Origin: Cycas panzhihuaensis
Lineage: Eukaryota; Plantae; Cycadophyta
Assembly: GCA_023213395.1 (NCBI GenBank)
Contig: CM041465.1
Location: forward strand, 190,409,741-190,473,740
Reading direction: 5' to 3'
Length of the DNA stretch: 64,000 nucleotides
The notes under the pieces are model-generated. The model searched no databases. It worked only from the letters and a program-made list of their open reading frames with translations, and was not told the DNA's origin. The translations under genes and the position numbers were made by a program. The number at the start of each line of letters is the position of its first letter. Position 1 is the stretch's first letter. Shown piece by piece: positions 29,054 to 64,000 of this stretch.

Positions 29054-30390
<1,337 letters not shown>

Positions 30391-30599: not shown

Positions 30600-30800
30600 G
30601 GAACTCATAACACATGGGCTTTACGATCTATCATATGTAAGGTCTTATATGTTAACGTGCAAGGATTCTCTAAGAAGTGATCCATACCATTTGTTAAAAT
30701 TCAAATTTGAAAATGCATTAAGAGCAAAACATTTAAAGAAGGGCACATTGTTATACACCTTTCTTATTATGGAGTTAATTCTTAAATATGTGCTCTAAGT
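30600..30800 (+). mobile_element. 3' end of an older gypsy remnant (integrase tail/PPT/LTR start) that hosts element D and the CRM
   Basis: aaagaagggcaca + tgttata at ~30735-30755 resembles the PPT/LTR junction at ~3794-3812. The upstream frame is weakly chromodomain-like. Confidence 0.4.
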
Positions 30801-31762
30801 TTAAATGAAAAACAAATCATGATTGCAGTGGCATTAACTTGTACTAATACTTTCAAGGCAAAGCATGCAAAGTGGAAGGGAAAATATTTTGTTTTTATTT
30901 CCCTAGTTGATTAAAGCCCCTTTAAAAGCATTTATTCTAGAATTATGATTTCAAGTAAAAAATATCAAATTGTGATACATAGAACATAGCATAGATTTTT
31001 ATATTGACTTTGAAATAAGTGGCCATGGGCCTTAAGCATGCATTGTATGACAAAGTCACACTAGTTTTAAACTTATGGTCATAAATATAAATTGTTAAAA
31101 ACTGCTACTAAAGCTAACCTTGGCCTAAAATAATTACTAATATATATGTTCGCCCATGAATAATGAATTGATAAATCATTTAAAATAACTAACTATCAAA
31201 GTTTTTTTTTTTTTCCTCGCCCCTTCGAAAGTTGTCTTTATTTTAGATGTTCAATTACCTTAAAAAAAGGGCAATTGTTATAGAAGATGATTATGTGATT
31301 TTGTAAATATATTGTAAGAAAAATAAATCATATTATTACATGCTATTTTTTTGCATTGTGAAATTATAATATTTACTATTATTTTATTGTGATAGTATAT
31401 ACTTCAATATTAACAACCATTTTAATACTTCTTTACAATAGAATTTAGAATTGTTATTAATATTCTATTACTTACTATTTTTTATATTTAAAATATTGAA
31501 ATATTCATGATGTCTACTATTAGATTCTATAAACAATCCGTAAAGATTTACCGCAACTACTTAAATTGTTCATAAACCCAAAATGTTAAATATGGAAGCA
31601 GCATTATTTGGAGGGTTAGAAATAATATACTATGCATTGTATGTCCTCCAAGACTATGCATTGTATGTACTCCAAGGGACATTTTCACAAATATGCTAGC
31701 AGACAAAGCTCACATGGGTTGCGTAATAAACCCCATCTCAGGCTGCATTTATTTATCGCTGC

Positions 31763-31935
<173 letters not shown>

Positions 31936-36091: not shown

Positions 36092-38094
36092 TGCAATACA
36101 ACTGCTAAGAGGGACATCGAACTATCTAAATAAAGTCAAGTACACCTAAACTTTATAATTTATTACGTTATTATAATTAATGTAAATTGAGGATTATAAT
36201 AGGTTGTCATTCAAGCAACGAGTTTTCAATGTTAACATTACTTGATTATTTAACGTCATTTGTCCTTCTTTCTCACGTTCCACCTTTTAAAGTTCTAAAC
36301 GTTTTTTTTTTACCCTTTTTTGAAGAGCAAACATAAATATGTATTCCTTGAACTTTGGACTTGTGTATATTGATGTTGCACACAATTCTATTTTAGTCTT
36401 ATAAATTAACTATTTTGAGATCTACATGGATCTTTATGGTTAGCTTGTTAACATATTCATGTATAATCCTATCGCAACAAATATTTTCGATCACATAAAA
36501 AATCTTTTTGAAGATAATGTTATGGCTCTTTATTAAACTTGCATATTATAGCTCATACAATTTATAATAATTATCCTTGTTTAGGATTAATATTTCAAAT
36601 TTTTGCTAAAATAAGTGTCTGTGTGTGTATATATATTCCTAAAATTGAATTTGTTCTAAAATATGTTACTATTCATAATAAAAAAACATCTATATGTAAT
36701 ATGGTAATCTAATATTTTCTTTCTCTTCTTCAATAACTAATCAAAACTATGGTTTTATTTATCTAATATAAATTATAAGTTTAATACTTTTCATTTCTTT
36801 ATTAAACTATTTAATGGTAATATTCTTATGTTGTTATCTCTTATATAAGTGAAATGACTAAAAAATGTGGAATTTAACTTCAAGCCTAGTGACCTTTCCT
36901 TTTTCTAATGAGAGCTTTAGATTACTACTTTGATACTTCTTCACAAGTTTATTTGTAAAACCTACCTATAACTACTAAATATGCCACTAGCAATCCTTAA
37001 CCACTCTTTCTCTTATAAGATTTTTGTAGGCCCTCATTATTATTGTAATACCACACACAATACATATTATATACTTCATTATATATTCTACAGTATGCTT
37101 CATTATACATTACATTTTTCTTATGTTTCATTTGCATTATTCTGTCATCAACCCTTTGTCACAAAATAAGAACATAGTGATATTCCATACTAAGTGTGAG
37201 GGATGTATCCTAGTATATTATAAATTTTATATTGTGATGTTATATGATATTGGGATATAATGCCTATATGTGTGGGTGCATATGTGCATGTGTGTATGCT
37301 TATGTATATGTGATTATCATATGGACCAAATACTCAAATGTATTGTAAATAATATAATAATATCTCCACTAATAATATTATATGGCTAAGTCACTTAAAG
37401 GGAAATAAAATAGGGCATGTGGCATGAGCCAAGAAGGAATTTCTTAGGGGAAAGGTCTTTACTCTGAACCCTTTATATTTAATACCCCCTTTTCTGTGAA
37501 GTTAATTGATAATTAATATGGTTATTAGTGTTGTATATATTGAAGTATTTAATGTTTATTATGATCATAAATTTAAGATATGAGCCCCTCCCCAACTTTA
37601 TGTTTTGTACACTAATTATTCTTTATTAGTTATTGTGCTACAGTAATGAATCATAGTGGTTACTCAATTTACCATATAAGTGTTAATTTAGTTGCATGTA
37701 AATTATTCCTTTGTAGATGTGTATATGCATATCAGTTATATATTATAAAATTAATAAGAATATGATGAATATAATTTACATTTAAGACTAATTTTCTATG
37801 TTAGTTTGTTATTATCCTTCTCAATTTGATTCTAGTTTGAATGGCAACATGATATCATAGTAGGATTAAGTGAATGTCTAGGTAAGATTAGAAGCATGCT
37901 TGCATAGGTTTAAGATATTATTTAAGTATATTAGGATATATCCTTTACCAAGTTAGGTTCATATGAATAGGATTGGATACATTTGAGCTAGATTAGATTC
38001 CTTTTTTGGTCTAGTTGAAGATTAAGTAAGGAGGTTTTTGAGAGGTTTAGAGCTCAAAATTAAATTTTTATTAAAATAATGTCTTATATATGAT

Positions 38095-38225
38095 AAGAAG
38101 TTTGGTTAGTTTGTTGACACAAGGAAGTTGAGTTGGGATCTTAATAAGAAGTTTAGTCAATTTGTTGACACAAGGAAGTTGAGTCAGGATGTTGAGAAGA
38201 AGTCTAGTCAGTTTGTTGACAACAT
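38095..38225 (+). repeat. 51-bp tandem repeat (2.5 copies) in the 5' LTR of A; 1.5 copies in the 3' LTR
   Basis: aagaagtttggttagtttgttgacacaaggaagttgag units at 38095, 38146 and 38197; compare 48796-48875. Confidence 0.85.
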
Positions 38226-41200
38226 AAGAATGGTTAGTATCGACATGATAAGCGTCGACTTAATGTAAAGTTATATAGTATAAATAGCTTATGTCAATAA
38301 GCCATCATTGAAAAGTAGAGTTAACTTAATTATCTGCAAATTGACCTAGACCATATGAGCATATGATATATCTATCATGACTTAGATAGTTACAAAATAG
38401 CCTATGATAACTAAAATTGATGTATAAGTTAGTTACAAAATAGCTTGTGATAACTAAAATTGAGGTATGTACATTTCCATTTTATAATATTCTTTTTTAA
38501 GTTCTATTGAGAGGTATCTCATGATACCAACCAATTCCTAGGCAACAATATACTATGGGTTAATTTTTTTAAACATGGTATCAGAGTAAGAGTTCTGTTT
38601 GGGGTTTCTAAGACTAAAAAACTCTAGTTAGTCCTTATTTTCTCAAATCTTGAAGAAGATAGTAAAGAAGAGTGAAGACATGAAGCAAAAGGTGTCTTTT
38701 AAAACAATACGATTGTGTACGATATTACATGGACTTTAAAAATTAAAGTACCTATTTTTGCTAAAATTTTAGTAATAGGAGCATCTCGGGAAGTACATCA
38801 TCTTATTCCAAAGAGGCAACTGAAAATTTTATCATTTTTATGGTGTTTAGTTCACTTTCAGCAGTCCATGGGTTTGAGGATATTTTGAAGATTTCTCTCA
38901 AAATACTCACTTAATATGGGTAAAACTAGTCCATATAAATGCACTTTTATATGACCAGTCTATCTCATTTTTCTAAGATGACCTCCTTTGTTCTTGATTT
39001 AGGCAAATAAGATAAGCTTACTATAATAAATTACCAAGTTTGGGAAATTAAAATTGAGAGTCTACTAAAAGCAGAAAATGCCTACGATATAGATATAGGA
39101 AAGGAGAAAAGGTTTGTTAATGCTAATGACCAATGTAGTTAGGTTGATAGGAATAATTCAGGAGTAATAATTTTGAAATTGCCCATTTTAGACTCCTTAT
39201 TAGTATATGTTGAAGGAATGAATTCTTCTAAAGAAATCTGGAAGGTATATGATAACCTTTATAGATGGAAAAATGAAGCTAGAATTGTAGCGTTGAAAGA
39301 AAGTTTGTAAAAACTCCACATAAGGGAGAAAGAGAATGCTTTAGATTTGATTCATAAGGTCATATCTATTAGAAATGATTTAGCCAATGCTAGAGCAAAT
39401 ATTCTAGAGCTAGAACTTATATAAATGATTATAAACAAGCTTCCAAAGTCATTTAATAATATGGTAAATTCCATAACTAATAATAACCAAACTGTAATAA
39501 TTTCTCTTGAGACTTTAACCAATCTTCTACTCAGCCAGGAGCAAAGAATTAAAAGATATATGGAGTAGACAGAAATTGAAGTTTTATTATCTAAACTCAA
39601 CATTAGCACCAAAGGATGAGGATAATCTTCTTTTAATGGTTGCAGTTGGGTACATGATATTAGAAATCAACCTAGAGGAAGATGGTAAGACAAGAAAGGT
39701 AGAGGAATGTCAACTATGCCAAAAGACTCAATAGTCTGTTTTAATTATAGAAGACCAAGATACTTTCCTAGTAATTATTAAGCCTTTGATGTGTACTACC
39801 ATTGTGAACAATGAGAATACTATCCCTTTTAATGCTCTAAGAGGCAAGTTGAAATCTGGAGAGGAAAAAGGCTTGTAGGTAACTATAGTAAAGAGCAAAG
39901 CAACTTTAAAGAAGAAGAATAAGAATATAGAGCCGTCATAGTTCCACTTGTCACTTCCACTAAAGATGAAGATGTTTGGTATAATAACTCTAGAGCATTA
40001 AGCGACATGATAGGATGAAAATAATGGTTTGAATATATAAAGCCATACTCTCGTAATAAATCAGTAGAATTAGGGAATAAATATTCCCTTAACATTCAAG
40101 GAATTGGAGTAATAGTAGTCAAAATCAAGAGAAAAGGTTTAAAAATTGGTAATATTTTTTTCATCCCAGGGTTGAAAAAAAATTTACTCTCAGTCTCCCA
40201 ACTTTAGCAAAAAAGGTTGAGAATCATCTTTGATGAAAATTGGTTTTTCCATAAAAAAAGGAAGAATTGTAGTGCCAAGAGGCCTAGAAATTAATACTCT
40301 TTATAGACTACTTTCTAATCCCATTACTTTAGAAAATGATGTAAAATCCTTTGTTGTTTCAAATACTAATAATAACAAGCTCTAGTATTTGAAATATGGG
40401 CATATGTACAATCCAAAGGCATATTAGGAAGAAGTTATTAATATAATAATTTATTTATTAAATAAAAGTCTAACTCAAGCATGGATGGGATACAAGCCTA
40501 ATGTAAGTAATCTCAAAATTTTTGGTTGTCAATATTTTGTTCACATTCCTAATAAGAAAAGATCCAAACTTGATTGCAAGAGTATAGAATGCATAATAAT
40601 AGGCTATAGTAAGAATTCCAAAGCATATAGGTGCATAAACTACAAAGTAAATAAAGTATATATAAACAAAGATGCTATCTTTAATGAACAAGATATTGTT
40701 ATAAATCATGAAAAACATAAAAAAACTAAAGTATCCACTAAATAATTTCCCATGGTTATTCCTTAAACTAAGGATATCTTAAGAATTATATTTGAGGACA
40801 CATAAATAGAAGAAGTATGTTCTGAAAGGGGCTCTTCATCCATCAGAGAATTTAGTCCTAAAAAAGAAAATAAAATTAGAACAACTTCTAAAAGGATACT
40901 AAAATGGTACCTTAAGATAATTAAAGAGGGAAAAGGCGATGTGTTTGATCATAAAACTAGATCCTAGAAATATCAATCATTATTTCACTTAACTAAACCT
41001 TAGTCATATGAAGAAGCAAGATAACACATTATGTGGAAGTTAGCAATGGATACAAATATGAATTAATTGAACCACTTGCTAATAAGTTGATTGTTATAAA
41101 TAGGTGTACAAGGTGAAAGAAAACTCTAATAGAAAAATAGAAAAATACAAAGCAAGATTGGTAGCTAAAGGATACACCCAAACTATAGGAATATATTATG

Positions 41201-42000: not shown

Positions 42001-45000
42001 CTAACTATTACAGATCATATCTTTCTCTACTAGAACCATGAGATCCCTAGGGAAATCACTCTTCCACTCTTGACCTTTCCTGTGCCTTGCTCCCCAGTTT
42101 GCCAAAAAGTCAGCTGGCTTATTACCTTCTCTCAAAGTATGCCTTATACGAACTTCTGCCAGTCCCTTAATGAGCGCTTTGGCATCATTGAAAAGGGACT
42201 AGAATTTCCAGTCTAGACGGGCCTCACCTCTTAACGTATTTAGCACCACCTCTGAATCCCCCTCTATTACCAAACGCTGAGTATTTCCTTCAACTGCTAG
42301 GTCTAAGGCTTTCAGCATAGCATGCATTTCCACATAATGGTTTGTCTGGAATTCATAGTAATCCGCAAAAGCCCAAATTAGGGAACCAGTGCAATCCCTA
42401 CAAATACCCCCTCCTCCAGCTTCCCCAGGGTTCCCTTTAGCAGCCCCATCAAAGTTAACTTTGATCCAGTGCTCCTCAGGAGGCTGCCAACTGCTACCTC
42501 TGGGCCTTACAGTCATAAATACAGGTTGCATACCCCATTTACTTAGAATCCTACTCTCTGGCATGGATATACGCTTTTCTTTCACATTTCTAACATTTTC
42601 CCTAATGTCCATACATATTCTGTTGAAAATGGCAATCTGGTCCATCTGTTTTCCCTGAAAGATTCTTCGATTTCTCTCTTTCCATATATTCTAAGCCAAT
42701 ATGGGGAGCGTACTCTTCCAAATGCAGCTCAGTGTTTTTCTTTGAAAGGGATAAGCCAGGCGAGCCATAAATCAATGATCTTTTTGGAAAATGTCCAGCA
42801 AACCTCTAGTTTTCCCAGCAACATCCTCCAGACCTCCCTTGTGAAAGAACACCGAATGAAGATGTGGTCCATGGATTCCTCCTCTGAGCAACATAAAGTG
42901 CATTTGTTTTCCAACATAAAACTTCTCTTCTTAAGATTATCTATAGTGAGGATTTTATTCATAAGGCAGGTCCACCAGAATATAACAATCTTAGGAATGA
43001 TATGAAGCCTCCAGACACCTTCCAGGGTTGGACTTCTCTGATCCCCTCTAGTTAAACAAAGGAAATGGTATCTTTATTTAACAGTGTATTCCCCGGACGG
43101 GCCCAGAGGCCACACAACCGTATCCGGCAAAGTCATTCTAGGGATGTAATTCTTACTAAGAATCCTTTTTAACTTGTTAAGGCCCTCTTGCAGTTCTACT
43201 CCTTGAATTTCCTCAAGAGACTTCCAGCTCCTATTTTTGCCACTCCCGGACCAATAGTCCTTAACATGAATGCCATATATCCTGACACAGGGATCCATAA
43301 TAGGTACCAGGTCTGGGAAGTCCTTAAGCGCTTTGTCGCAGCAATGCGCATCCTCCCAGAACCTAATAGAGTTTCGATCTCCAAGTCTCCATTTTAAACC
43401 ATTCCTTATGGCTCTCCATGCTTTTAAAATGCTTCTCCAAACTGTAGAACTGACCTGCGAAGCCTCATTCTCTAAAAGAGAACCCCCTTGAATGTATTTT
43501 CTAGACATAATCTTCTCCCAAAGTCTCTCACTCCCTTTAAATAACCGCCATCCCAACTTTGCCCCTAAAGCAGTATTGAATGGTGAAAACCTTCTTAGGT
43601 TGAGGCCACTGGCCCATTTTGGGGTGCAGACTTTATTCCAGCTTACCAGATGTATTCTGTCTTTGCTCTCCGTCCCCGACCATAAGAATCTCTTCTGAAT
43701 AAATTCAATAATATTTGATATACCCATCGGAACACTGAATATGGACATCCAAAATATAGGAACGCTCTACAGCGTTGAAGCGACTAGTTGGAGTTTTCCA
43801 GCTAGACTTAAGAGGGCACCTTTCCAGCCCGCCAGCTTCCTTTGCATCCGATCGATGAGGGGGTTCCATATGTCCTTAGTCATCCTCCCTATAAAGAGAG
43901 GCAGACCAAGGCAGATTGTGGGAAGTTTTTTAATGCTCATCTCAAGGATTCTACTTATCCTACCTTGAATATGGCCCGGGGTATTTATAAAGAAGACATT
44001 ACTCTTGTTCAAGTTTATCTTTTGGTTCGTGGCCTCCTCGAAGTGGCCCAAGATCTCTTTAAATTTGGAAGCCTCCCTTAAAGTGGCTTTCCCTAAGAAG
44101 ATATTGTCGTCCACAAATTGATGATGGACCACATTATCCACTCCAGATGTCGGCTTTATACCTTTTATGGCCCCCTGTCTTTTGACGGACTCCAAGGTTC
44201 TACCTAGAAGCTCAGCCATCGTAATATACAAGAAGGGAGAGAGAGGGTCACCCTGCCTCAACCCCCTAAATCCTGGAAAAAACTTGGAGGAAGAGCCATT
44301 TATGATGACAGAGAATTGTGGGTTACCAATGCATAGTTTTATCCTTGATCGCCAAGTCTCCCCAAAACCAAAAGCTCCAAGGCATTCTAACAAACAGTCC
44401 TAGGAAACCCTATCAAAGGCCTTCGTGAGGTCAATCTTGATAAGCATCGCAGGCTCTTTCCTTTTCGCAGCCGAATGAATTATTTCGTGGACAATAATAT
44501 AGCCATCATATATCTGCCTACCCCGAAGAAAACCATCTTGATTCTGGGAAATGATATTTGGCATAATTTTCTTCACTTTATTCACCAGAACCTTAGTTAT
44601 GATTTTGTATTTAACATTGCAGAGGCTAATGGGGCAGAATTCCTCCATCCTTTTTGCCCCATCGTTTTTGGGGATAAGGACAAGGAATGTGGTCTGCCAC
44701 TCCTGCAAGATCTTTCTGTTCACTTGAAACTCCTTCATTGCTTCCATAAGGTCCCCCTTGATAATGTCCCAGAATTCTAGAAAAAACCCTGGAGGAAAAC
44801 CATCGGGGCCTGGGGCTTTACCTTTCCTCATACTGAATAGAGCCTCCCTGATCTCATCCTGACTGAATGGGGCTATAAGCTGGGCATTCTACTCTTCATT
44901 CACCAAGCATGGAATATTGTTCAGGAAATCATTCCTCCTATCCTCATCCCCGCCTAGCGGTTCAGTGAATAGATCCTTGAAATAATCGCAAGCCAACTCC

Positions 45001-46187
45001 TTCATACCCTCAGCTGAGCTGACAACAGATCCATCATCCTTTTGAAGACTATTGATTCTGTTGTTCGCTCTATGTTTTGCTGTGGTCATATGGAAAAATC
45101 TAGTATTTCTATCGCCTTCGGCCAACCAGAGAGCCCTAGATTTTTGTCTCCAATGAATCTCCTCTCTATTGAGGATCTCCTCCATAGTCTCAGTGAGCTC
45201 CTTCTCAGCCTTGTCCAGCTCCACTGATCTACCCAGCCGTTCAATTTGTTCCTCTATGCCTTTCAGGTCCTGGATAGTTTTGTCCTTTTGTTCATTTATG
45301 TTTTGAAAGACTTCCTTATTCCAAACCTTTACTTGTCTTTTGACCCAGTCCAACTTCTTTGAAAATCTATACATATCGTGTCCTTTAATATCAATGCCCC
45401 ACCATTCCTCAATTCTTTTCCGTAGGTCTGGATGGCGAAGCCACATTAATTCAAATCTAAAGGGGGGCCCAATAAATTTTTTGGGATCTGAAAATTACAT
45501 CAAGAGGGGCGAGTGGTCAGAGCTGATCCTCGGCAAAGCCTCTAAGGCGAAGTCGGAGAAGCACCTCATCTAATCATAGTTGACCAGCACCTGTCGACAG
45601 TTTGAATAAGGCATCCCCAACCTCTTATTGGACCAGGTGAAGGATGCCCCCCTGAGGTTAACATCTTCCAAACCCCCCTGTTGTAAAAAGTCGCTAAAGT
45701 CAGTCATGCTAGTGGTCCATCCCCCGGAGCATCCTCTTTTATCTCCAGGGGATAAAGCTGAGTTAAAATCACCCGCCAGCAACCAAGGGAGTCGGCAATC
45801 CCTGTGTGCCTCGATCAGTCTATCCCAAAGCCTCTTTCTGGCTACTTGAAGAATTGGGGCATATACATTGGTAGCAAGCCATGTGATGTTGCTGCTTTTG
45901 TTCGTTAATCGAACCGAAATAAAAGAATCCTCAATCAAAAAGATTTCTCCCGACCAGATAGATGGGTTCCAAAGCACCATTAATCCCCCGATTCCTTGGC
46001 CATAGTCTCTCTCTATGCCATCATCATGCTTCCAAATTTTGTTTCTAATCTTTGATCCGTTCTCCTCGCATAACTTAGTTTCTTGCAGAAATAACAGATC
46101 CAATTGATGTATGATTCTCATGTCCTTAATAATTCTTTGCTTCGAAGGGGCATTCAAACCCCTAATATTCCATGACATAATTTTCAT
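42001..46187 (-). pseudogene. L1 ORF2: APE endonuclease, RT, zf-RVT, RNase H; several stops and frameshifts
   Basis: MKIMSWNIRGLN, LFLQETK, LAGDFN; KAPGPDGF, KIDLTKAFDRVS, GLRQGDPLSPFLY, QFVDDNIFL; CTLCCSEEESMDHIFIRC; KVNFDGAAKGNPG, IEGDS, HTLREGNKPADFLAN. Confidence 0.95.
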
Positions 46188-46211
46188 CACTTATTTCTCA
46201 GTTTCCAAACC

Positions 46212-47564
46212 TCAGCAGTATCCCCTTTTGGGGTTCTCTTTCTTGTCTTTGGATCTCAGAATAGGTCCTTCAAGAAATGCTTCCTTTAGAGTTTTCTGGG
46301 TACCTAGATCCACCTGGGCAGTTGATTCTTTCTCCCTTTGTAGCTTAGAAGGTGGTCTCCCGACCTTCTTCTCGGCTCCCACATCAGGCATCTTCTTTTG
46401 AGATAAGGATGGTTGCGGTAGTGAATCGAGGGCTGACCTTCCTAATTCCACTGTGTCCTCAGTACCGTTAAGCCCCTGGTTCGCTTCAACATCTGTGGGC
46501 AGATCTGCCACCAACACAGCCTTTTTATCCTTCTTTTCCTTCTGCCTTATAGGCTCATGCAGATTAGTATGGACCGGAGAACCTACTCCAGAATGGGAGA
46601 GATCCCCCGATCTAGTCACTCCAGCCGGGCACTCTTGAATCACAAGGGCCTGAGCCTCTTGATCATCTTCCTCCAAGAGTGTGTCCTCCTCATTTGGGTC
46701 AAAACCCATGTTCGGGAAAGAGGCCTCCGTGGCCTCCATTGGTGCTGGGCGTTCAAAACCCACCCCTTTTTCTTGGGGGTTTGACTTTAGTGGATCTTCT
46801 TCTTTCTCGTCTTTTGAGGGCTGCACTCTCGGGCACTTTTGGGGCAGATGCCCCATATTTCTGCAAGTTGAACATCTAAAGTGGTCCATCTCGTAGACCA
46901 GCGGTTGAACCCAACTCTTATCTCGCAAATCCATCCAGATATCATCCAAGAGGGGCTTGTCTAGTCTTGCCAGGGCAAAAATTCTGGCATTTATGAGCTT
47001 ACTCCTGTTCTTCATTGCGGAGTCAACTGCTAATACAGGGCCCACCACTTTCGCTATACCTCTAAACACCTCAAGGTTCTAGTGGTGAAGGGGGAGGCCC
47101 GGGAGTTGGATCCATATCGGAGCTTGTTTAATTTTAGGGCTTGAGGGATCACAATCCCTATGTCATTTCTCGAGAGAAAGGGCCTTCCTTCCGAACATCC
47201 ATGGTGCTCTGATCAGTATGCTGGACATGTCTTCATAAGAGGCAAATTTAAATAGCACACAGCCCTCAGGCATGGCTATTACCTCCACACTGCTCACTGT
47301 TTTCCATTTTGTCTTTGTCCAAGTTCTAATGGATTCCAGTCCCGGCCTGGGGCCTGAGAATCTACCAACAAGGCAATTTTCCCATAATTTTTCGCTTTTT
47401 TCCACCAGAGCTAGTGGGATCTTCAGTCTTACTTTATTATCCTCGAACACATGTGTTAGGTCAAAGGATTCCTCCTCGTTTGTTTTCAAAGCATCCTGAT
47501 AGGTTCTCCCCAAAGCCAGGTTAGGGTTCTCGTTCTGATTTTGAGGGGAATGATCTTTTTCCAT
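46212..47564 (-). pseudogene. L1 ORF1 (DUF4283-type region plus zinc knuckle), interrupted by stops
   Basis: WENCLVGRF..W..GCVLFKF..RAPWMFG; WIQLPGLP; CSTCRNMGHLPQKC. Confidence 0.92.
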
Positions 47565-50559
47565 TTTTTTAAAAATTCAAAACAAAGGAAGAAAGCTCCA
47601 AATAGGAAAATAGTGGCATACCATTTCATCTTCAAGCTTGCTTTCAAGGGGCTAACATCCGAAATCTTTGCAGTATGCCCGACATCTCCCTTCAAAACCT
47701 CTCTAGCTCCACGTTTGGGTCTATTATGCAGTCTATTTGTGTAACTTTGGGACCTGCGTCCCTTCCCAAGCCTCTTCATGCCCGATAGTCCTGCTGAATC
47801 GTGGCGACTCTCTTCTTCTAGAAGATCAAACCGGGGTTTCGAAAAGCCTAACTTCCACGCTCGAACACTGGAAACTCTAACCCGTTGCTTCTAGAAGATA
47901 CCGGCTCTGGCACTTGGCGGCCCGTCTACCTCCTGGGTGAACTCGTTTACATCCTGCTTGTCCTCCGTCTCAACATGAGTGAGGGGAGAGATAGACCTAA
48001 AAACATCTTCAGAAGCCAGCCAGCCGGCCCTGCCTTTACCCTCCAAGGGACGCCATGGCATCCATAAACTTGTCGCTGCGTATTCCGTCTCAGCCGCGTC
48101 GAACCCTAGCTGCAGAATCCTCCTATAGTCTAATTTATCTTACCATCATAAGACCTAATATCTTATATTTTGTAGATGTTATTTCCAGATATATATAGGA
48201 TCCTTACATTGGAAAGTAGTGAAAAGAATACTTAGGTATTTCAAAGGCACCTTAGATCTAGAACTTACATATACAAAATATGATAGAGGAAAGCTAATTG
48301 GATATAGTCATTTTGATTAGGCTATATACAAAGAAAATAAGAAGTTAATTATTAGATATTATTTTCTTCTTGGCTTAGCAATAGTATATAGGAGTAGTAA
48401 AAAGTAACTAATTATTATATTATCATCTATAGAGGCATAATACAAAGTAATAATAAGTATATTATGTGAAGTAGTATGGCTAAGGTAATTTTTGGTAGAT
48501 TTAAATCAAAAGCAGAATAACCTAATAACTCTTTATTGCAATAATCAAGCCATAATAAAGTTGATAAAGAATCAAGTCTTTCATACCATAACCAAACATA
48601 TTGAAGTACATTATTATTTTATCTGATAAAATATTTGGAATAAAGAAATAAAGCTAATATATTATATAACAACAAGTTATAAATATCTTGACTAAACCTC
48701 TTAGCAAAGATAAATTTTAATTTCTTAGAGATAAGGTTGGTTTAAAATAGATAAAACATTAAAACAAGGTATTAGAATAATATTTTATCTATGATAAGAA
48801 GTCTAGTCAGTTTGTCGGCATAAGGAAGTTGAGTCAAGATGTCAATAAAAAGTCTAGTTAGTTTGTCAACAACATAAGAATGATTAATATTGACATGATA
48901 GGTGTCAACTTAATGTAAAGTCATGTACTATAAATAGCTTATGTCAATAAGCCTTCATTGGTGAGTAGACTTAACTTAATTATTTACAAGTTAAGCTAAA
49001 CCTTATGGATATAAGACATATATAACATGAGTTAAGCAATTATAAAATAGCCTATGATAATTAAAATTAACATATAAGGTATTAGAAAATGAGTATGCAA
49101 AGCTCTAATACCATGTTAGAATAACGATATGCTATGTATACAAGAAATAAAATATGATGGTGAGTAAATGATACAACAATGAAGCATAAGGAAAATAAAG
49201 TATGTACAAGTTAACATAAGATATGGAAGAATGGGCAAAGTTCGAATTAGAATAAATGATAATGTATATACTTATAGTATAAACTCACCATGAATGAGAT
49301 AACCCCATTGGTTTATCTTAAAGGTAGTTCACATCTTTATATGGCTTACAACCTCAAATATAATAATATAAATAAATGTGAAGATAGTGTAGGTGGGGAT
49401 AATTATATAATTGGGTATTACACCCAATATTTCCCCTCTATAATACATAATTATATAAGATAAAATATCATATCAAAAATAAATATTAAGTTTTCAAATG
49501 AATGCTAGGTCATAAGCAGATGTAATACTATAATTTGTTACCGATGTCCTTATGAAGAAAAGCCCATTTATCGAAATGCATGGGTAACCAACTATTGCAA
49601 CCACTAGTTGAATAAGAACCTCCTTTGGATACATGGTTCAATTAGCATGAAGTCAACGTCACTCTAAGAACACACCATCCTACATAGCCAAATAAGTGAG
49701 ATGATGAAGAAATACAAGAGTAGTTGAAAAGGGGTCCTATCTCTTACTTAAATAGGATAATATAGGTAGCTTTAAATAGGTCTAAGACCTTATATTAGCA
49801 CTATGGCCTTAAATTACCTTTGTAGGCTAAAAATATACCTCTATGGGATACATCATACCACTATGGACTTTAATATATCATTATGGACTAAAATCAAATA
49901 ATAGATATCATAATCATGACTAAAAAATGGATGTGATTGAAATACAATATGAATGTATCTCCCAAATAATGAATTTTAATGTGAAATAGGTTCTCTAGAG
50001 CTAAAAATGAGCCATTATACATGTTATCACCCAATTTGGGATACATTATATTAATGAAATATATAAAAAATAGCATTAAACACTAAAAATTACTTATAAG
50101 TGCTAACAACGTGAAGAAAAATAAAGTTTTGAAAGAAACTTTTGATTTTGAGCTAAAATTTCTACATCGAATCAGCTCTAAATATTGTGAAATGACTTGC
50201 CAAATGAAATCTCTCTCAGTCATAAATCCAACATAATTGATGAGATTGAAAGTAGAGTCTGGATGCTCAAGTGACAACAAAAAAAATGACAAAGTCTCTA
50301 TGAAAGTTAAAACTTAAAGGCTTAGCCCCTTTCACCAACTAGTTGAAGGTCATATAGCACCACCGTGTGACCAAGGGTTGATGAACTAGAGGGATGGGTA
50401 GACTTCAAATTAAAATTAACTAAATTTAAAAAGTTTTGTATTTGTAAAGTAATTAATTTAAAATCTATAAAGATTCCAAATTTACTAAACAAAATATGTT
50501 AGTAATTAGAAAAGAAATATATGTCAAAATATTAAAAATAAATTATATTTTAACTAAAA

Positions 50560-51605
50560 TGATTAAGGTTTCAATCATCATGTTATAGGGGCACCATTTT
50601 ATCTTCATTCTCTCTACATTAAAGTTTGATGGGTGGTTGTCATTAATTCATTTCTACATATAGTGGGTACCTACACAGATTTAGGTTACTCCTTTGAATC
50701 ATGTACTGTAAGAGCTCTTCTCTATCTAATTTAGAAACTCTCTATGGAGGCCCTTCAAATCTACACTAGACTTGCTTGGCAATCTCTTTCAAGGTATAGA
50801 AAGTATTGCCAATGGTTGTAATAATGCCTCTATAGAAAGCTCTCAGAAACATGAATGTCAATTATGGGCAGTTAGGCAGCATCAACAATGCAACCTTGCC
50901 ATATATAAATGGCATCCTGATAGTTCTCTGAATGATGCACACCCTATTATGAAACTCTGATAATCTGTTAAAGTAATACATATGTAGAGGTAAATAATTA
51001 GAGATCTCAATGCCTAACAACTTTGATCCATACATATATTTTATGTTTTCAACACTATCAGTCTTGGTCCTGAGAGTTGCAATAATAGAAAGCTCTTTAA
51101 TCTTACTCTTTAAATGGTCCAGTTCATAAATAGTTTTTTGAATTGCTATAGCTTCAACTTGATCTTTAGAAAAGGCTAATGCAATGATTCTAATAGAAAT
51201 AACATCAACACAAATTGTAAGATGGCAAGTAAGGCTTCAACACCTAACATCTAGCACCTTGCCCTGGTACCTTAGTAAATTCTAAATTCATAAGGTATAA
51301 TAGAAATTGCCCATTAGAAATAACATAAGGAGGCTACATATATTTTAAATTGTAAATATTTCCTATTTATAGGCTACTCATTGCGAAATTTTTCTTTTAT
51401 AATTGTAGAGTTATTTTTGACCTTTAGATAGCCAAAAAAAACTCCTTCAGTTATTGTCAACAACTCCATTATAATCTACCACTGGTATACAAAGAGATTG
51501 CTATACTAATTGCATATGCTCAGAATAAAATTCTCATCCTTGTTGATAGAAAACATGTTGTTTCTACAAGGTGATCAGGTCTACATGAATAACTGATTTA
51601 TTCAT
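50560..51605 (-). pseudogene. Decayed ORF of unknown function in element B
   Basis: One frame from aaaaATG at 51605, with 124 stop-free codons at 51236-50865 (SLTCHLTICVDVISIRIIALAFSKDQVEAIAIQKTIYELDHLKSKIKEL..RLSEFHNRVCIIQRTIRMPFIYGKVALLMLPNCP). The 5' third is stop-rich, so the ATG link is uncertain. Confidence 0.45.
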
Positions 51606-52082
51606 TTTTCCTTTATGAATAATAGCTTTAAAAAATCTTCAACATATGCTTCAAAACAACCTTATAATAGCATCAAAATAGTCCCTTAATAATGACTAAA
51701 AAATGTTACAAAACAACCCTAAAGATAATGAAAATAATCCCAAATATGTGTATAAAAATAAAACATCAAATAGCTTCAAAAATCTTGAAATGATCCTTCA
51801 AATGATTAAGAAACAAGTCACTAATCAGGCATAATACAATTTCCCTAAAAAAATTGGAAAGGCTCTAAAAAATTAAAAGAATAACATGTATAAAGGTTAT
51901 AAAATATTATCCTTAAGGATTTAAACCTTTAGTAGAAAATGAGTATGCAAAGCTATGATACGATGTTAGAAAAATGATATGGTATGCATACAAGAAATGA
52001 AATATGATAATGAGTGAATAATATAACAATGAAACACAAGGAAGATGAAGTATATACAAGTTAAAACAAGATATAGAAGAAT

Positions 52083-55000
52083 TAATAAAAATGTCAATAT
52101 CTAAATACATATGCAATAATCTACGTACATTAAGCAACACAACTGAAATATTCAAGAAAATATGTAAATAATACAATAAATAGACCAGTAAGGTTGCAGA
52201 CGAATTTGTCACATCGCAGGCTCTCTATTGGGCAAAGCTTCCACATAAAATTAAATTAATGTGATATATAAATATGTAGGGAATTATTTATAGCCAACTT
52301 TTAATATTAAAATATAATTTGATAGGTTGATTTAATGGCACAAGATGTGGACCTGACCTCATGATTAAATATGGTTTAATTATATAAAAGGTCCATTAGT
52401 GCATACTATAAACATTAGATTATAAAGATGTGAAGAAATATAGGAGGTATTAGATAATTTTAACACCCTCCATTAATAGCAACTTCATTTCTTTAGATTT
52501 TAAGGTCATATCTAAACCATTCAAACTTTAGTTTACCAAGTTCTTTGGTAAAGATGTTGGCGACCTGGTCTTTAGTATGATGGTAAGTGAGATTAACTTC
52601 TTCATTTTGGACACGATCATAGATAAAGTGGTGATGGATCTCGATATGTTTGGTTCTAATATGGAATACAAGATTCTTCATCATCTTTAGCATGCTTTAA
52701 TTATCATAGTATAGGATGGTAGATGTAAATTGTTGAAGTCTAAGCTTGGTTAGAATCTTTCTAAGCTAAATCAACTCGATTATAGCATGGACAACTACTT
52801 TATATTCTACTTCAGTGGAGGAAAGGGTAATATTTTCCTACTTCTTATAGATCCACAAGATTATAGATAAGTTTATATAAAATAATAACCTAAAGTTGAA
52901 TAATATGTGTCCTGGCAACCAACCTAATCAGCATTTATATGTCCTTTTAGGGTAGATGAGTCAGTCTTGTTATACTCAAGGCCAAAGTGATCAATGCTAC
53001 AAATATATTTGAAGATCCTAGTGGTTGTTCTCTAATGAGAATCTTTGGGTTGTAATATATACCTAGAATAGATCCCTACTACATATGACATGTCTGGATG
53101 AGTATGGGTAAGATAAATAAGGCCCCTAACTAACTACCAGTACAAAGTAGGATTGAAAAGCTTTTCTTGATCATCTAAGTTTAACTTGCTTCCTATCTCC
53201 ATGCAAATTAGTATAGACTTATATTCTATCATCCAAAATCTTTCTAAGAGCTCATTGGCATGCTTAGTTTTAGTTGGGAGGATGTGGCTTCATTCTTTCC
53301 AAAATTCAATTACAAGGAAGTAGTGGAGTAGCCTAAGGTCAGTCATCTCAAAGTTATTCTTTAATTCTAATTAAATCTAAGAAATTTTATCTATATTGTT
53401 ACCAATGATAACAATATCATCCACATAAAGGATAATGATTGTGATCAAATTATCTCTAACCCAAATGTAGAGATCAGGGTTGGATGGTAAATGATTAAAT
53501 CCATACTATATAGGGAAGGTATCCATCTTTGTATACCAAGTACGTGGTGCCTACTTAAGTCTATAAAGGGCTTTCTTGAGTCTATGAACTAAGTGTTCTT
53601 ACTCTAGAATAGCATAGCTTGGGGGTTATTTCAAGAAAACCTCTTCTTTGAGCTCTCCATTGAGGAAAGCACTCTTCATATCCATTTGGTAAACAAGCCA
53701 TCCAAATTAGTCTACTAGGGATATAACCAAATAGAATGTCGTCATATTAGCAACTAATACAATGGTCTCACCATAGTCAATTCCTTCTTATTATTTGAAA
53801 CCTCTTGTTACAAGGCAAGCTTTATGACATTCTACAGTTCCATCTCCATAGAACATTATCTTATACAACCGTCTATAGTTAATTTCTTTCTTCCTAGGTG
53901 GAAATCCAGTTAGCTCTAAGTTTTATTTTCTAAGATAGAATTCATCTCATCCATAGCTACTTTCAACATTTGGTGTTTAACTACCTCCTCAAACATGGAA
54001 GGCTCAGGAGTTTCAAGGACACATGCCATGAAGGAAACGTTTATAGAGTGTCTCATCTTGGAAGGCCTCTTTGCAACTATGGGAAGAGGAAGAGCATCCT
54101 TTAAAAGTTGTTATACCTACTTAAGAGGTAATTGAAAACTAGTGGCTTCCACTTGAAGGTCATCAATTGAAATGAGAGGCAAGGTTATTCTTGCTTGAGT
54201 GGATGATGAAGATGTTGCTGGAACTATGACGGACCTAGAGTGTATAAGGAAGTTGGTACTGGTGGCTCTAAAATTTATTAAAGAGTTACTTGTGATGCAC
54301 TAACTTCACCTATTACTATAATATGAGTTTGAGAAGGAGTCAGTTCACGTGGTTTTTCTGCAAAGATTACATCACGTGTCATGTAAGCTTGGTTACCAAC
54401 TATGTCAAATACTTTATAGGCTTTGTAACTAAGTATATAACTAAGGAAGATGCACTTAAGGCTCTTTTCATCAAGTTTCTTTATGTTATCCTTTAGGATA
54501 TATTTGCGTGCAACGCATCTAAAGATCCTCTAGTGAGCTATAAATGGTTTTTGACCTAACTAAGTTTCTTCAGGAGTAATGTTCCTAACTGTAACTTGGG
54601 GGCTTATGTTGGTTAGGTAAGTAGTAGTGGCAATGGCATCGACTCAAAATATGGTTGTAAGGTTAGAAACACTAAGCATGGATTTTCCTTTGTTGATCAA
54701 AGTCTAATTCATCCTTTCAGCTACATTGTTCTGTTAGGGTGTGCGAGGAGTAGAAAATTGATGATGGATGACATGTTCCTTGCAAAATTTATTGAATTGA
54801 TTTAAAATATACTTAATACCATTTTTAGATCTAAGGGTCTTGGTTTTTATTTCACTTTTATTTTTTGCAACAATTTTTAACTCTTTTAATCTATCTAGGG
54901 CTTAGTATTTATTTCTCAAGAAATAGACCCATACTTTCCTTAGGAACTTATCTATGAAGGTGATGAAATACCAACTATCATTCAGAGATTTGATGGAAAT

Positions 55001-58000
55001 AGGGCTACAAATTCCAAAATGGACTAACTCTAATGGTTATGAATCTCTCCATCCATTCTTAGAAGGGAACTTTTTTCTTTGTTGCTTTCCCCTTAGGTAG
55101 GCCTCACATATGTTATAGTATCTCCTGACTTTAGGTAGGTCATGTACTATTTTGATCCTAAACATGAGGTTCAAGCTTTGTATATTCAAATGACCTAGGT
55201 GATGATGCTAAAGGTGGTCTTTGCAGATATTTGTAATCATATCATCTTTTAAATAAGAGCATTCTTTAGGTTCTTATATGTAAGGGGACTCTTCATCAAT
55301 TTCATCCTTTCCCTTATCAGATTGAGTTGAGTTGGCCATGAAATAGGATTCATATTGTGGAGTAGTAGAAAGGGGAACTCCATCCAGTCTATATAAGCCA
55401 CCATCCTCATATCTTGTAGCCATAAGTTTTCCTATAGCATGGTCTACAATTTTGTAAATGCCCTAGCTAAAGATGACATCTAAGTTCTGCTTGAACATTT
55501 AGTTAATGGAAAGTAAACTCATCTTCATACTAAGTACAAGGAATGTATTACTTATGTGGTATATAATGTTAGAGTCCTTTAATATTATTTGTGACCTACT
55601 AATTTTAGTCACATTATAAGTTAAGTTGTCCTTAAATATAACTGTTTAGGTGTTGATTAATTGGGTCTCTTCTAACATCTTTTTAGAACCTGTCATATAT
55701 CTCATTGTACCAGAATTAAGGGGCCATGTGGTCTTATAAAGTTGAGGATAATACTACAAAAAATAAATTATGGGAGAAGGAGTCCTAATCATCTCCCATG
55801 TTTCCACCTTGGTGTTGATTATTCTATTTGTTCCTTTGATGTCCATTTAAGAACTGCTACATATTTTGAGGTCTTTAGCCTTTTGTGGGTTATGGATTCT
55901 AATTTTGTTAATAGAATTGGCCTTGAGATTAATATGATAGCCCCATTATGGGTAAAAAAGGCCTCCTAGTTGTCGAATGGGACCATCTTGTTGATAATAA
56001 GGGTCTCCTTATTGTAGGAAAGGGACTCATTGACGAGGGCATGATCCTCCTTATTAATAAGAAACTCCTTGTCTTTATTAAATGTAACTAGGACCTCCTT
56101 GATGGTATTTGGATGCTCTTTATTAATAAATAGGGGATGGTTGTTGATAAAATAGCCTATATACTTGGCTTCGTTGGTTCTGCAAGAGTTGTAAATCAAT
56201 TTATCTTCTCTTATATTTAATATCTAGATGTCTAAATTTTTCACAATAAAGGTAGATGACATTTTATTTACCCTGCTAATTCTTTTGAGGCAATCCTTAT
56301 GGTTGGTGTTATGATTGATGAGGCTATTGAGTTAAATAGGATGAAGAGGAGGTTTCAATAGGTTGTTGATGAGTTGGCTATTGATGTGACTCTTATGACA
56401 TGGAAAGAGAGTCTAAGTGTTAAGCTAGGTCTTGTTGCTGACTAAGCTATTAGACTACTCTATTAATAGTCTTACCTTTTTCTAAGTTTTAAACTATAAA
56501 GATAGAAGCTAAGTTAGATGTCGATGTCATCCCTAGTCAATTGAGTATATTTTCCTCTCGAAATAAAAGCCCCATCTTGGAGTAATTGTTATGTAACTTG
56601 GATATAAAGGAGTTATATTCAATAGGTAGAATGTTAATGATGTTAAAAATCAAGTCACAATCAAAAGGTGGTTCACTAAGGATAATGAGTTAGTTTCTAA
56701 TAGTTTTAACTTTGGTTAAATAATCAGTAATAATACTATCAAAGGGAATAGAAAATATATGGGCTTTGAATGTCAAAGATCTAGATTCATCTTTTCTCTC
56801 ATAGATGGCACAAAGTATTTTCCATGCCTTATGAGATGTTTGCATGGTTTCAATGTTTTAATCTACTTGGTCTTCAACCGCCAAGTGGAGAAAGGATAAT
56901 ACTATGTTATCTTTAGCTTTGAAGTTTGCTAGGGCTATAGGATTGGGTGGAATTATTTTAGTGGAATCATTATGATCTAGTGTAGGAATAGAAAGAGGTA
57001 TGTCTCCATTAACATAGGCCTAAAGTTTATACATGATAAATAAGTTTTTGACTTACTTCTTCCATAGTATAAAGCTATTTATCCCATTGAGTTTAATAGT
57101 ATTTGAAAGGAGCATTTATAATAGCATGTTTAAAGAGTTTTTGTGTTTGAATTTATATCTTTAAAGATTTTGCATGATAAGGTACTAATCTACCTAAGTG
57201 GCTTCTAATCTAGAATTTTAAGGCTAAGGATCTCTAGGAAAACTCTTAGTTACTATCATCTCTACTAGTGCCTACCCACAAGTGGAAAACTAAGGACTTG
57301 ATATATTTGTACGTGAGCTTAAAGGCTCAATATACTTTAGTATATAGGTTGTAATGAAGGTCCCAAGACCCCCGTAACTTACATTAGTTTTATGCCAAAT
57401 AATAGATCTAGTAGTGAGAACTTACTAACCAAGGCACTGGCCTCATTGTGTCTAGCCTGGTCTCTAAATTCTAAACGATAGGGTCTATATCTCAAGTTAC
57501 CACCTAATACACCTGATAGCTACTAAAATTCCTCATCCAATATGAGTAGGTAAAGGGCATATATGTGGTGGTAACTTTTGGGGTCCTAATTGTTCCCCTT
57601 GTAAGGTTGGAAATAAGGGTTTAATTTAGGAGTTATCATTTTAATACAAAAAATCTAATTTTTTAAGTGAGTTTCTTACACACAAGAGGTTCATTTTAAA
57701 GTAACAAATAGAATGAAGATGAAATAAAATCAAATTAAAATAATAAGAGTAGGTTTAGAAAGCTTTTAATGGGCCAAGCTTTAAGAGTAAACTTCTTCAA
57801 CATTTTAAGAGCAACACCTACATATGAGACATTACCATACACTAATTAGCCTTAGAAATTAGAATTGAACAACTGAGAAAGATAAGCCACAACCTAATCT
57901 AGTAGAAAAACCTTAAAGAAACTAAAAAATGCCTTTAAATTTTAAAAAATAAGGCTTAAATAACTCAAACATAAAGGTTAATTTGAGCGATTAATATCTC

Positions 58001-59081
58001 CTATAAATTAGCTCTAAATCTAGATCAATTTGATTCTAAATTGTAGAGATCTAAATCTCCTTTTCAAAACTTTAGATGGTTCATAAAATAGATGCATAGT
58101 TGAGGAAATATTGCGAAACAACGTAGGCACCTTTTTTATGCTTACGAGACCTACGCGCAAAAACAAGTGACCAAAGGAGGAGTGTGAAACTCTAATGAAG
58201 GAACCAATGACCTCAGAATGAGACAAAATTTTAGAGGAATGGATGCAATGATAGGAGGGACCTAGTAGATGTGGAATTTTTAAAAGAAAAGCTTGTACTG
58301 AGGAGAACAAAGCTGTGGAAGTGTAAGGGGTAGTGAGAGCCCAACTAAGCAAAATAAAGCCTAAAACCACCTCAAATATCTTCTAATAAATTGTGTAAGT
58401 GGAAGTAGGGCTACTAAAAGCATGAGTGAAGCTCTAGTAAGAAGAAATGATCAACAATAAGGTTATAATGAATGAAAAACATGATTTTTCATTTATTTTC
58501 TTTAGAAAACTTAGATCAAAACCCCATATGAATGCACAAGAGTGAAAAATATACTGTAAGAGGTTGTAATCAACTTTAACTAGCTTTATTTTTACTCTAT
58601 CACTACATAAAACTTAGATTTTTTGCTTAATATATGAAAGAAATAGAGTAAACGAGCTTTAAATTGCCAAAAAACATCAAATTGGACATATATGGGCTCT
58701 GATACCATGGTCAAAACCTAAATACATGTGCATTGATCTAAGTATATTAAGTAACACAACTAAAATATTCAAGAAAATATGGAAATAACATAATAAATAG
58801 ACCAAAACGGTTGCATGTAAATTCATCATATCGCAGGCTCTCTATTAGGTAGAGCTTCCACATAAAATCACATCAATATGATGTATAAAGGTGTGGGGCA
58901 TTATTTATAGCTATCCACCAACATTAAAATATAATTTGATAAGCCAACTTAATAGCACAAGAGGTGGACCTGATCTCACTATTAAATATGATTTATTACA
59001 TCAAAGGTCCATTAATACACAACATAAATATTAGATTATAAGGATGTGAAGAAATGGAGGAGGTATTAGATGGTTTTAACA
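52083..59081 (-). mobile_element. Full-length decayed Ty1/copia (C) inserted in the 5' LTR of B
   Basis: LTRs 52092-52465 and 58708-59081. PBS (rc) gctctgatacca 58696-58707. PPT (rc) ccctcc 52466. TSD agaat (52078-52082 / 59082-59086). Gag from ~57127, zinc knuckle ~56240, PR ~55720, INT 55200-54350, RT 54000-53050, RNase H (ORF 52493-52693 HIRTKHIEIHHHFI..DQVANIFTK). Confidence 0.92.
55940..56150 (-). repeat. ~21-nt coding repeat (YQQGGPx heptads) in the Gag of copia C
   Basis: YQQPSPI Y**RASK YHQGGPS YI**RQGVS Y**GGSC PRQ*VPF LQ*GDPY YQQDGPI RQLGGLF YP*WGYH. Confidence 0.75.
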
Positions 59082-62000
59082 AGAATGGATAAACCTTGAA
59101 TTAGAATGAATGATAATGTGCATACTTATAGTACAAACTCACCATCAATGAGAGAATCCCATGGGTCAATCTTGGAGGTAGCACACAACTCTATGTGGCT
59201 CACAACCTCAAATATAATATTATAAATAAATGTAGAGAGAGTGTAGGTGGGGACAATTATGTAATTTGGTATTAAACCCAACATAAGGTACTTACAAAAT
59301 AGCATGTGATAATTGACATTAAAGTATGTACATTTCCATTATATAATATTTACTTTTAAGTTCCATCAAGAGTGATCTCATTATATTAACTAGTTCTTGG
59401 GCAACAATATTCTATAGGTTATTTGTTTTTAAAGAATTTTAAGTCTATGTTTATTAAAAATTCCAATTACGTTTTATATTCATGTCGCAACAGGTTATCA
59501 CAAGGTTTGTCTACTTTGAAGATTTGCATGTAGGTTATTACAATGGTGAGTTCAACTTATAATTCATCTAGAGTGCTCTATGCTAGAGCCACTTGATGTT
59601 AAGTACTACTGGGTAGATCAAAATAATATACAATATAGAGGAGATGTCTATCAACATTAAGGAAACATACTCCAAAGGAAATCCTTATAATAGATGCATG
59701 TAAAATACTATCAAAAATTCATATGTAATACCTTAAAAAAAAACCACTCAAAACACATAAAATAACATGCATAAATAAAATGCACTATATGTGCAGGGTC
59801 ATATACTATTATAACTGACTACATATGAGGTCAAAATCTAAGGAAAAATGTTATGGAGTGGTTTTATGGTGGGGACATCAAATTTTTAATCCAATGATCT
59901 TAGAAGCATGGTATTAAAACCCTTGATTTATTAGCATAAATACAACTAGTAAAATTATAGGAATTAGTTAAAATAAAATAAAATTAAAAATAAAGCAATG
60001 TTGAAATGCCAATGTTAGCCCTTAGAAAGAGACATCATAGTGAGATGTCAAGCATGTGAAAGAAGTTATACCACTAATAAAGAATACGTCAAATATTTTA
60101 AATTACCACAATAGAACATTAAAAGTTTAGGAGGTATAATAAGATAGTGTTGGTATTTAATAGATGTTAAGTGCATATATGCTAAATAACCACTGACTCA
60201 CTAGATGATAAGCTTTAAAGAAGGGTAAATATTAATGAAAGGATGGCCTTTTAGCCACAATTTGCCAATGTGTAAATACAATTATAAATGCCAAAGATTA
60301 GTAACCTAAGGACTTAAAAATGAATAGGTGAGAATACAGAAGAGCAAGCATTAATCACCTATCACTATTTATAAAGAGAAAATAGTCCCATAAGTAGCGA
60401 TGATATTAAATAATAGGTAGAAATAAGATTCCTAGATGAAAACTACTTAAGATATAGATTAGTAGTCCATAGCAAAAATAAGACACTTGAAGTATGCTAG
60501 ACAAAGCAACAACTAGTAGGCATATAGACCCATTTTGCAAAGTGATGTAGGAAGGAGGAAACATATTAATGACAAGTAAAACAATTCATTTTCATGTAAA
60601 ACCCCAGCAGAAATACATGCACATATGTGATCTAAAAAAGATGACAAAACTTTAGTGGAAATCAATAATAATTTTACCCAAAAATTAAAAATATATAAAG
60701 AGTTTATCACCTACGTGGCACATATTCTAAGAACATTCTTTTAAAATGTTGGTTAAAATAATTTTTTATTTTTCTAATGTTTTTGAGTCAGGCCTCTTAA
60801 CCTCTATACTTCAACACCTAATCATATGGTATAAAAGGTGCTAAGACATTTTGGGGTTGATCTTGCACTTATTTCATAAAATTAAATACACTACCCTAAT
60901 CAATATTTTGAGATCTATAATTATGCAATTGTCATATGGGCCACATCTATTTACTTTCTTAAAGAAAATCTTAGATTTCAATATTCTAAATTAATTCTAG
61001 CTACCTATATATAGATTGAGGAAGAATTTTAGCGGATCTCAACTACTTATATCTACATTGACAATATTAAGTAGTAATTTTAGTGTATCGTATATAATTT
61101 TTTGTTGTTTTTAGTTGCAGTCTTCTAGGGCACAACATTTTGGCAAGTGAGTATGGCATAATGAATTATGTAGCTAAAAGATTGTCTAGTTCTAACAATT
61201 ATACTATATAGAAACATCAAATGTTAAACTTTTTTATTTTAAATGATTTATGACTATATGTAGATAACTCTTCCATGGATATGAAGTAGAATTACATATC
61301 GCTTTTGGTTTTCTTAGATTATCTATCAGTGGATGCCTTATTATGAACATTAGAGGCACCACTACCCTAAAGAAAATATAGAATACCATCACTAACTTGT
61401 TTAAACACATGGATGATATGAGAGCTCTAAATATAATGAGTTATCTATACAACTTGAAACTTGTAAGATTGATGATTGACCACCTACATTATGTTAAATC
61501 TATTCAAGATCAATTGATAGCCATTAGAGTGACCACATTTGATCTAGAAATTATTTATTATATTTTGAGGAGTCTACCTCCTATGTAGGAGAACTTTATT
61601 AATACTTTAATACTTTCAAATCAATTACTCGCTATGACATTTAGTTCCTTAGAATAATTATTTCTTAAGTATGAGTAAAAGCTAAAGGACTTAAATCAGG
61701 AGTCATCTAGAGCACTAACTACTAGATTGAAGAGAAGGAAACTATTTATTCCTAAGAGAAACACATCCTCTAAATATATTATTCAGAAGGATAGGCCTAG
61801 AAATTGAAAGTGGGAGTATAAACTAAAGTACTTTCCTTATGGTTGGTTGAAGCACACAAAGAAATATTGTTAGGAATTTCACTAATAACAATGTCAATAA
61901 TAATAATTACATCGATAACCTTAATAATAGCAATAGATACAACATCATCCAAATGATTAAAGAGATCATATTTTCAAATACACAATGGAATATAAAGATA

Positions 62001-63461: not shown

Positions 63462-64000
63462 TGTTAGGATATTGATTTCCATAATTATAGATGCAATGTT
63501 TAACTAGTGGTGAGTTATCATTAGACAATATGAAATATTCTCACATATAATATGATTAGTTGATGTATCAACATGATATGAATGATTAATGCATGAGATG
63601 AAGAGCTTATTTAAGAGGGAAGAAAACTCTATCATTCTCCTATGGTTTTTTTCATCTTAAGTTTTTCACATATAAATTTGGTATGTTATGATGATATCTT
63701 TCTCTTGTGATTGTTATGCTATTTTAATATGTACATACTTCACTTTATTATGTTTGAATGTTTATTGTAAATACCTCACGAATATTTATATTTTACTATT
63801 ATTCATTACAATTTTATATCAATGAATGCTTTACATATCTATATACTTTAATATATTATCCTATACAATAAATTTTTAACATAGTAATAGAGTTTTCCCA
63901 TAAGTTATATAAAAACTTTTAACATGGTATTAGAGCCTAGGTGAAGGTTAAAGTCCTAAAATAAAGGTGAAGATCCTAGTAAGACAATATATTAGAGATA
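63462..64000 (+). mobile_element. 5' LTR and PBS of a further LTR element (F) running off the window
   Basis: TGTTAGG (63462)...TTTTAACA (63924), followed by PBS TGGTATTAGAGCC (63925-63937). Confidence 0.75.

Follow-up and report, generated by a model that had tools for sequence, protein, structure and literature searches.

The LTRs of element B, a retroelement in the 64,000-nucleotide stretch of DNA analysed here (the window), appear to end in a tandem duplicate of the LTR tip together with a 12-nt primer-binding site (PBS) for tRNA-iMet, and many independent insertions of the same family in public sequencing runs end at the outer of the two tips. Our best explanation, which we consider probable, is that full-length tRNA-iMet likely primes at an outer PBS lying behind that outer tip, and that B itself has probably lost this site through a deletion of about 14 bp.

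Limits and layout of element B

The window is AT-rich (GC 31%, CpG observed/expected 0.27) and filled with nested retroelements; no tRNA gene was found in its 64,000 nt. Element B occupies 49080–59283 on the minus strand (Table 1), inside one LTR of a host element, A, whose second LTR lies at 38069–38573. This uninterrupted LTR shows the empty site as a single TAAGT at 38425–38429, and because of this single-copy empty site the TAAGG duplication around B can be accepted as real and the 3′ end of B fixed at 49080, as the initial annotation had read it. Since tip and host both begin with TA, a 7-bp duplication (TAAGGTA) is also possible, and 5 bp was kept as the usual length. The LTR of A carries a tandem duplication of about 43 bp (38386–38470), with the insertion point of B at the junction between its two units, and a second one of about 51 bp (38069–38221). 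A also contains a LINE (42202–47576) whose ORF remnants are almost uninterrupted (DUF4283, endonuclease, RT, zf-RVT and RNase H) and which is far less decayed than the LTR elements of the window.

The 5′ LTR of B is interrupted by element C, whose LTR pair lies at about 52091–52465 and 58708–59083, with an SH3_retrovirus Pfam match at 54281–54529 and a PBS of its own at 58696–58707. An AGAAT target duplication (52078–52092 and 59084–59088) accompanies C, about 8 extra AT-rich bases separating it from the tip of C's 3′ LTR. Elsewhere in the window, a 2.7-kb tandem duplication (29069–34475, 95% identity) has (AT)n/(GT)n microsatellites at its borders. A fragment of an NAD-dependent epimerase/farnesol-dehydrogenase-like gene at 16924–17277, whose closest named single-domain matches are proteins of Taxus (70%) and Cryptomeria (67%), is bracketed by direct repeats (15052–15476 and 19916–20350), with a PBS-like motif at 15479 after the first repeat; it is possibly a captured gene. 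Its matches point to a seed plant, probably a gymnosperm, as the host.

Table 1. Features of element B and its surroundings, in window coordinates
Feature	Position	Strand	Basis or remark
TSD, left copy (TAAGG)	49075–49079	+	Single copy at empty site
3′ LTR, outer tip (22-nt degenerate duplicate of the terminal ~27 nt)	49080–49101	-	Anchored alignment (p 0.0003–0.001), depth step, unrelated flanks
3′ LTR, putative captured inner iMet PBS (12 nt)	49102–49113	-	PBS match, 1 mismatch
3′ LTR, core	49114–49429	-	Inner tip at 49114; degenerate TGTTG start at 49429
Polypurine tract adjoining 3′ LTR	49430–49439	-	Sequence
Internal region, about 2.5 kb	49440–51915	-	Without recognisable coding domain
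T-arm-complementary box	51916–51928	-	11/13; in relatives 2–3 nt from full PBS
Probable deletion scar (loss of ~14 bp that held the outer PBS, the priming site)	51929–51930	-	Comparison with loose ends of relatives
5′ LTR, copy of 34-bp unit	51930–51963	-	Outer tip 51930–51951, inner PBS 51952–51963
5′ LTR core, PBS-proximal part	51964–52082	-	101/119 identical to 49114–49232
Nested copia-like element C	52083–59083	-	Interrupts 5′ LTR of B, separate from B
5′ LTR core, distal part	59084–59283	-	TGTTG start at 59283
TSD, right copy (TAAGG)	59284–59288	+	Sequence

Judged by its sequence, B appears to be a decayed, non-coding LTR retrotransposon. An LTR pair, TG..CA tips, a 5-bp TSD, a polypurine tract, dispersed copies and a lack of gag/pol place it among non-autonomous LTR retrotransposons, with the reservation that decay may hide remnants of gag/pol domains. 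Across six stop-read-through frames of the internal region no Pfam domain reached the cut-off (one weak HEPN match, E 0.05), and no protein relative of the longest internal ORF was found. The two LTRs share about 84–85% identity over 321 bp (271/321), to which the 34-bp unit at their ends is added.

The initial annotation had pointed out that the same 34 bp occur at both LTRs, and this holds: 49080–49113 and 51930–51963 are identical at 30 of 34 positions, a divergence like that of the remaining LTR. The inner PBS that it had recognized within the unit is likewise confirmed, with one mismatch to tRNA-iMet in the 3′ LTR and two in the 5′ LTR. The other 22 nt had been described as a spacer ending in a copy of the LTR terminus. 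The copy is there, but all of the spacer aligns in register to the last 27 nt of the LTR core (p about 0.0002–0.006 against random 22-mers of the window; p 0.002–0.06 for the local alignment of spacer and tip). The spacer is thus a degenerate duplicate of the tip, and the 34 bp are a tandem duplicate of tip and 12-nt PBS with small internal deletions. A further tip-plus-PBS unit, 33 nt long, was seen in one contig of run X1 (see below), and a 35-nt step back in another contig of that run. DNA patterns for the 34-bp unit gave no matches in metagenome contigs and none in viral contigs.

Copies of the family in public sequencing runs

Six public DNA runs share 8–12% of words with the stretch, and they may come from relatives rather than from the species of the window. 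Contigs from four of the six aligned to 48700–52300, and those from three runs (X1, X3 and X4, from three organisms) to 49050–49229. These 180 bp are covered by 940, 742 and 483 contigs in the three runs, reflecting dispersed copies with unrelated flanks. Between 49074–79 and 49080–85 the summed depth rises from 9 to 517 in X1, from 31 to 539 in X3 and from 7 to 241 in X4. There is no like step at 49114, the depths at 49104–09 and 49116–21 being 2092/2399 (X1), 1996/1943 (X3) and 2422/2850 (X4). At the opposite end of the 3′ LTR core, unrelated flanks follow behind 49429 in 38 contigs of run X2.

Among the 18 of 254 rows listed, loose ends before 49080/82 agree with one another at 0.46 in X1 (19 contigs), 0.43 in X3 (15 contigs) and 0.50 in X4 (15 contigs), close to the 0.44–0.47 obtained for simulated unrelated flanks, a simulation that rests on a guessed agreement formula. 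Agreement at the level of unrelated flanks means that the outer tip is the end of many independent insertions. In two of these rows the end is TG, which restores a TGTTAG tip; the outer 3′ tip is TA in B and TG in most of the relatives shown (rows at 49082 in X1, X3 and X4). The proposals of the initial annotation that LTR, PBS and 22 nt together form the effective LTR, and that integration used the duplicated terminus, are therefore borne out in many copies, by the depth step and the unrelated flanks at 49080/49082 in all three runs.

Directly beyond the outer tip, the PBS 12-mer was found in rows of X1 (49086; 19 contigs, agreement 0.60) and X3 (49082; 27 contigs, 0.48, with a TG tip). The ends of other copies were judged by depth and flanks, and their outer PBS by the majority lines of contigs that are short and mixed; some of the PBSs next to the outer tip may belong to further tandem units instead of 5′ ends. 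A T-arm box 2–3 nt from a PBS occurs in 4 of the 12 rows listed (of 86), in three of the four runs (X1, X2 and X3) aligned to 48700–52300, and also in a row of X3 (49102; 4 contigs at 0.9 agreement) from the alignment to 49050–49229.

Ends at the inner tip occur too. Five contigs of X4 are loose before 49116, and among the 24 of 2173 pieces listed, four, of which two probably represent one shared locus, begin at 49114/49116 and carry long unaligned flanks, versus three at 49082/49086. B differs from the family at 49122–49137, and this difference biases mapping toward contigs with the extension, so that these counts do not give a proportion of inner to outer ends. The inner-tip copies represent relatives with a single PBS, or else daughters whose priming took place at the inner PBS. 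The initial annotation had allowed for a one-off aberrant end in B; outer-tip ends recur in three runs, although some copies do end at the inner tip.

Priming and the origin of the duplicated unit

On the element strand, the layout of the family would run from the U5 core through the inner tip, the inner PBS (PBS1, 12 nt), the 22-nt tip copy, the outer PBS (PBS2), 2–3 nt and the T-arm box into the internal region. The outer tip is the end of many copies, and PBS2 stands right behind it in the majority lines of relatives. In the general scheme of LTR replication, all sequence upstream of the PBS used for priming enters both LTRs (PMC5371799). By this standard route, priming at PBS2 would bring the upstream part, PBS1 included, into minus-strand strong-stop DNA, both daughter LTRs would carry PBS1, and integrase would use the outer tip. 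PBS2 is likely to be favoured, its predicted pairing being extended by the T-arm box. Because a full PBS follows the outer tip in relatives, ordinary priming by intact tRNA-iMet would explain the long LTR.

The unit itself may have arisen by an out-of-register jump of plus-strand strong-stop DNA, with its 12-nt tRNA copy, onto a minus strand still carrying about 22–27 nt of U5, an origin that we see as roughly balanced against plain DNA slippage. Plus-strand strong-stop DNA of Ty1 and Ty3 copies 12 nt of tRNA-iMet (PMC5371799). PBS1 has this length, which would fit such a jump, as would the occurrence of a second unit of different length. Many plant PBSs are 12–13 nt long anyway, which makes the length of PBS1 a weak clue. 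The 12-nt stop is linked to a ribosyl-phosphate at tRNA position 64, a connection that we do not use as evidence.

With architecture and priming unchanged, the unit could instead have been duplicated in tandem at the DNA level, by slippage or as repair filler, within a single 5′ LTR and later fixed by replication, a reading that competes with the out-of-register jump only. It would suit the look of the unit, a plain tandem duplicate from which small internal stretches are missing, and other short tandem duplications are present in nearby LTRs, those of host A. The duplicate, however, stops exactly at the 12th base of the PBS and leaves out the T-arm box, and the second unit of different length (33 nt, in one contig) suggests a recurrent, position-specific process. 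We regard slippage as a possible, if somewhat doubtful, origin.

Should the jump be the source of the unit, it might also recur as a PBS ratchet, an extension that we put forward only tentatively and think rather unlikely. Plus-strand strong-stop DNA with a 12-nt tail would now and then be captured out of register and add a unit of U5 tip and PBS; only the outermost PBS would have the T-arm extension, win priming and lock the unit into both LTRs, and LTRs would grow stepwise with spare tRNA-binding sites. In yeast Ty elements, the 12-nt-tailed plus-strand strong-stop DNA is a dead-end product.

The 5′ junction of B corresponds to the layout of its relatives minus about 14 bp, the PBS directly after the outer tip being absent in B's 5′ LTR and present in the relatives' majority lines. 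PBS2 was probably lost from B, after insertion or at plus-strand transfer, a step whose errors in HIV-1 remove bases at the PBS (PMC12657518). The T-arm box behind the junction was scored against a 13-mer that we take to be the T-arm sequence of plant tRNA-iMet. The 11/13 match given in the initial annotation stands, but the box does not lie directly beyond the 34 bp, as a single base (51929) intervenes. Matches to the 13-mer with at most two mismatches number 3 in the whole window versus 0.9 expected in shuffles. With a probability of about 3e-4 that one falls no more than 40 nt from a given site, the position of the box is not due to chance. A second TAAGG in B's own leader (51914–51918) is treated as a chance occurrence (a few per cent, by rough estimate). 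By comparison with the relatives, the box appears to be the ordinary T-arm extension of a real PBS, and B a copy without that PBS; the box would adjoin the tip in B, and give the impression of a truncated tRNA primer, because the roughly 14 bp with the outer PBS are missing. The complement of the 13-mer opens a Drosophila tRNA-Met primer (PMC4647464). In an unrelated element at 63925–63977, two T-arm-like boxes with a spacing of about 25 nt come after an intact iMet PBS; the first box was judged by eye, and the second has 3 mismatches.

It was from the box that the initial annotation had derived a 3′-truncated tRNA-iMet primer: a tRNA cut in the T-stem would prime at the box, and LTR, PBS and spacer would be copied and integrated. 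The box does lie one base from B's outer tip with no PBS between, in a position that is not random, and another primer site would have been needed if the loss of B's PBS predates insertion. Internally cut tRNA primers are known from Ty5 and Drosophila copia, whose half-tRNA priming is the analogue of this model, but those described in PMC5371799 are severed in the anticodon loop and not in the T-stem, and in B's relatives the priming position is instead occupied by a full acceptor-stem PBS. As this PBS follows their outer tip, and the box stands 2–3 nt from a PBS, normal priming gives the same ends. The truncated primer fits B alone, and priming from the edge of the box predicts an end at 51929, not at 51930. 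We therefore consider it very unlikely.

A one-off aberrant 3′ junction, in which microhomology-guided repair or strand invasion joined an over-long cDNA to a look-alike host site with an incidental 5-bp duplication, is hardly credible: the host sequence at 59289–59306 does resemble the outer tip at 49080–49097 (15/19 columns in register; p 0.0004 against random 18-mers of the window and 0.002 with the empty-site copy, both post hoc) and the TAAGG inside the leader could be cited in its favour, but three runs contribute at least 49 contigs that stop at 49080/82 and pass into mostly unrelated flanks, which makes the end a property of the family; the duplication also measures a clean 5 bp, and B has a canonical TGTTG at its 5′ tip. 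Priming at PBS2 does not account for the resemblance between host and outer tip, which reflects either chance or homology-assisted targeting.

Relation to known systems and meaning for LTR elements

B resembles the non-autonomous LTR retrotransposons of plants (TRIM/LARD in the wide sense) in its TGTT..AACA tips, Met PBS, polypurine tract, 5-bp TSD and lack of coding domains (bioRxiv 10.64898/2026.03.01.708851). Unlike TRIM/LARD as described there, each of its LTRs contains a PBS, with a second tip downstream of it. According to the same source, TGTT tips are found in both the Ty1/copia and the Ty3/gypsy superfamilies. In having a short acceptor-stem PBS and, close to it, a stretch complementary to the tRNA-iMet T-arm, the family recalls the multipartite PBS of Ty1 and Ty3 (PMC3592414, PMC5371799). 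In the B family, by contrast with these accounts, the box lies 2–3 nt from the priming PBS, a second PBS lacking a box is duplicated into U5, and the pairing is predicted from sequence.

Two tRNA-binding sites per element are also described for Drosophila Gypsy, which needs only one of them for cDNA synthesis (PMC1635307). The Gypsy sites are at the 5′ and 3′ ends of the genome, whereas those of the B family are 34 nt apart and would derive from tandem duplication of the U5 tip. For the jump proposed above, the closest likeness is the aberrant second-strand transfer of HIV-1, in which plus-strand jumps that are out of register delete or insert sequence at the PBS (PMC12657518). The HIV-1 products are reported there as defective, whereas the duplicated form of B has been amplified to many copies in several organisms. 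Searches of open-access literature brought up no amplified family in which both LTRs had received a duplicated PBS. The parts are all known, and together they make a real variant of LTR architecture, not a new primer type.

These observations indicate that an LTR end can shift outward by taking in its own PBS and still amplify widely, and that LTRs do not always follow the rule of ending at the CA that precedes the PBS. An annotation that cuts such elements at the inner tip would miss their TSDs and could take 3′ or solo LTRs for 5′ ends. The mixture of inner-tip and outer-tip copies amounts to a natural experiment on the choice that a plant element makes between two adjacent PBSs, and on whether the T-arm box decides it.
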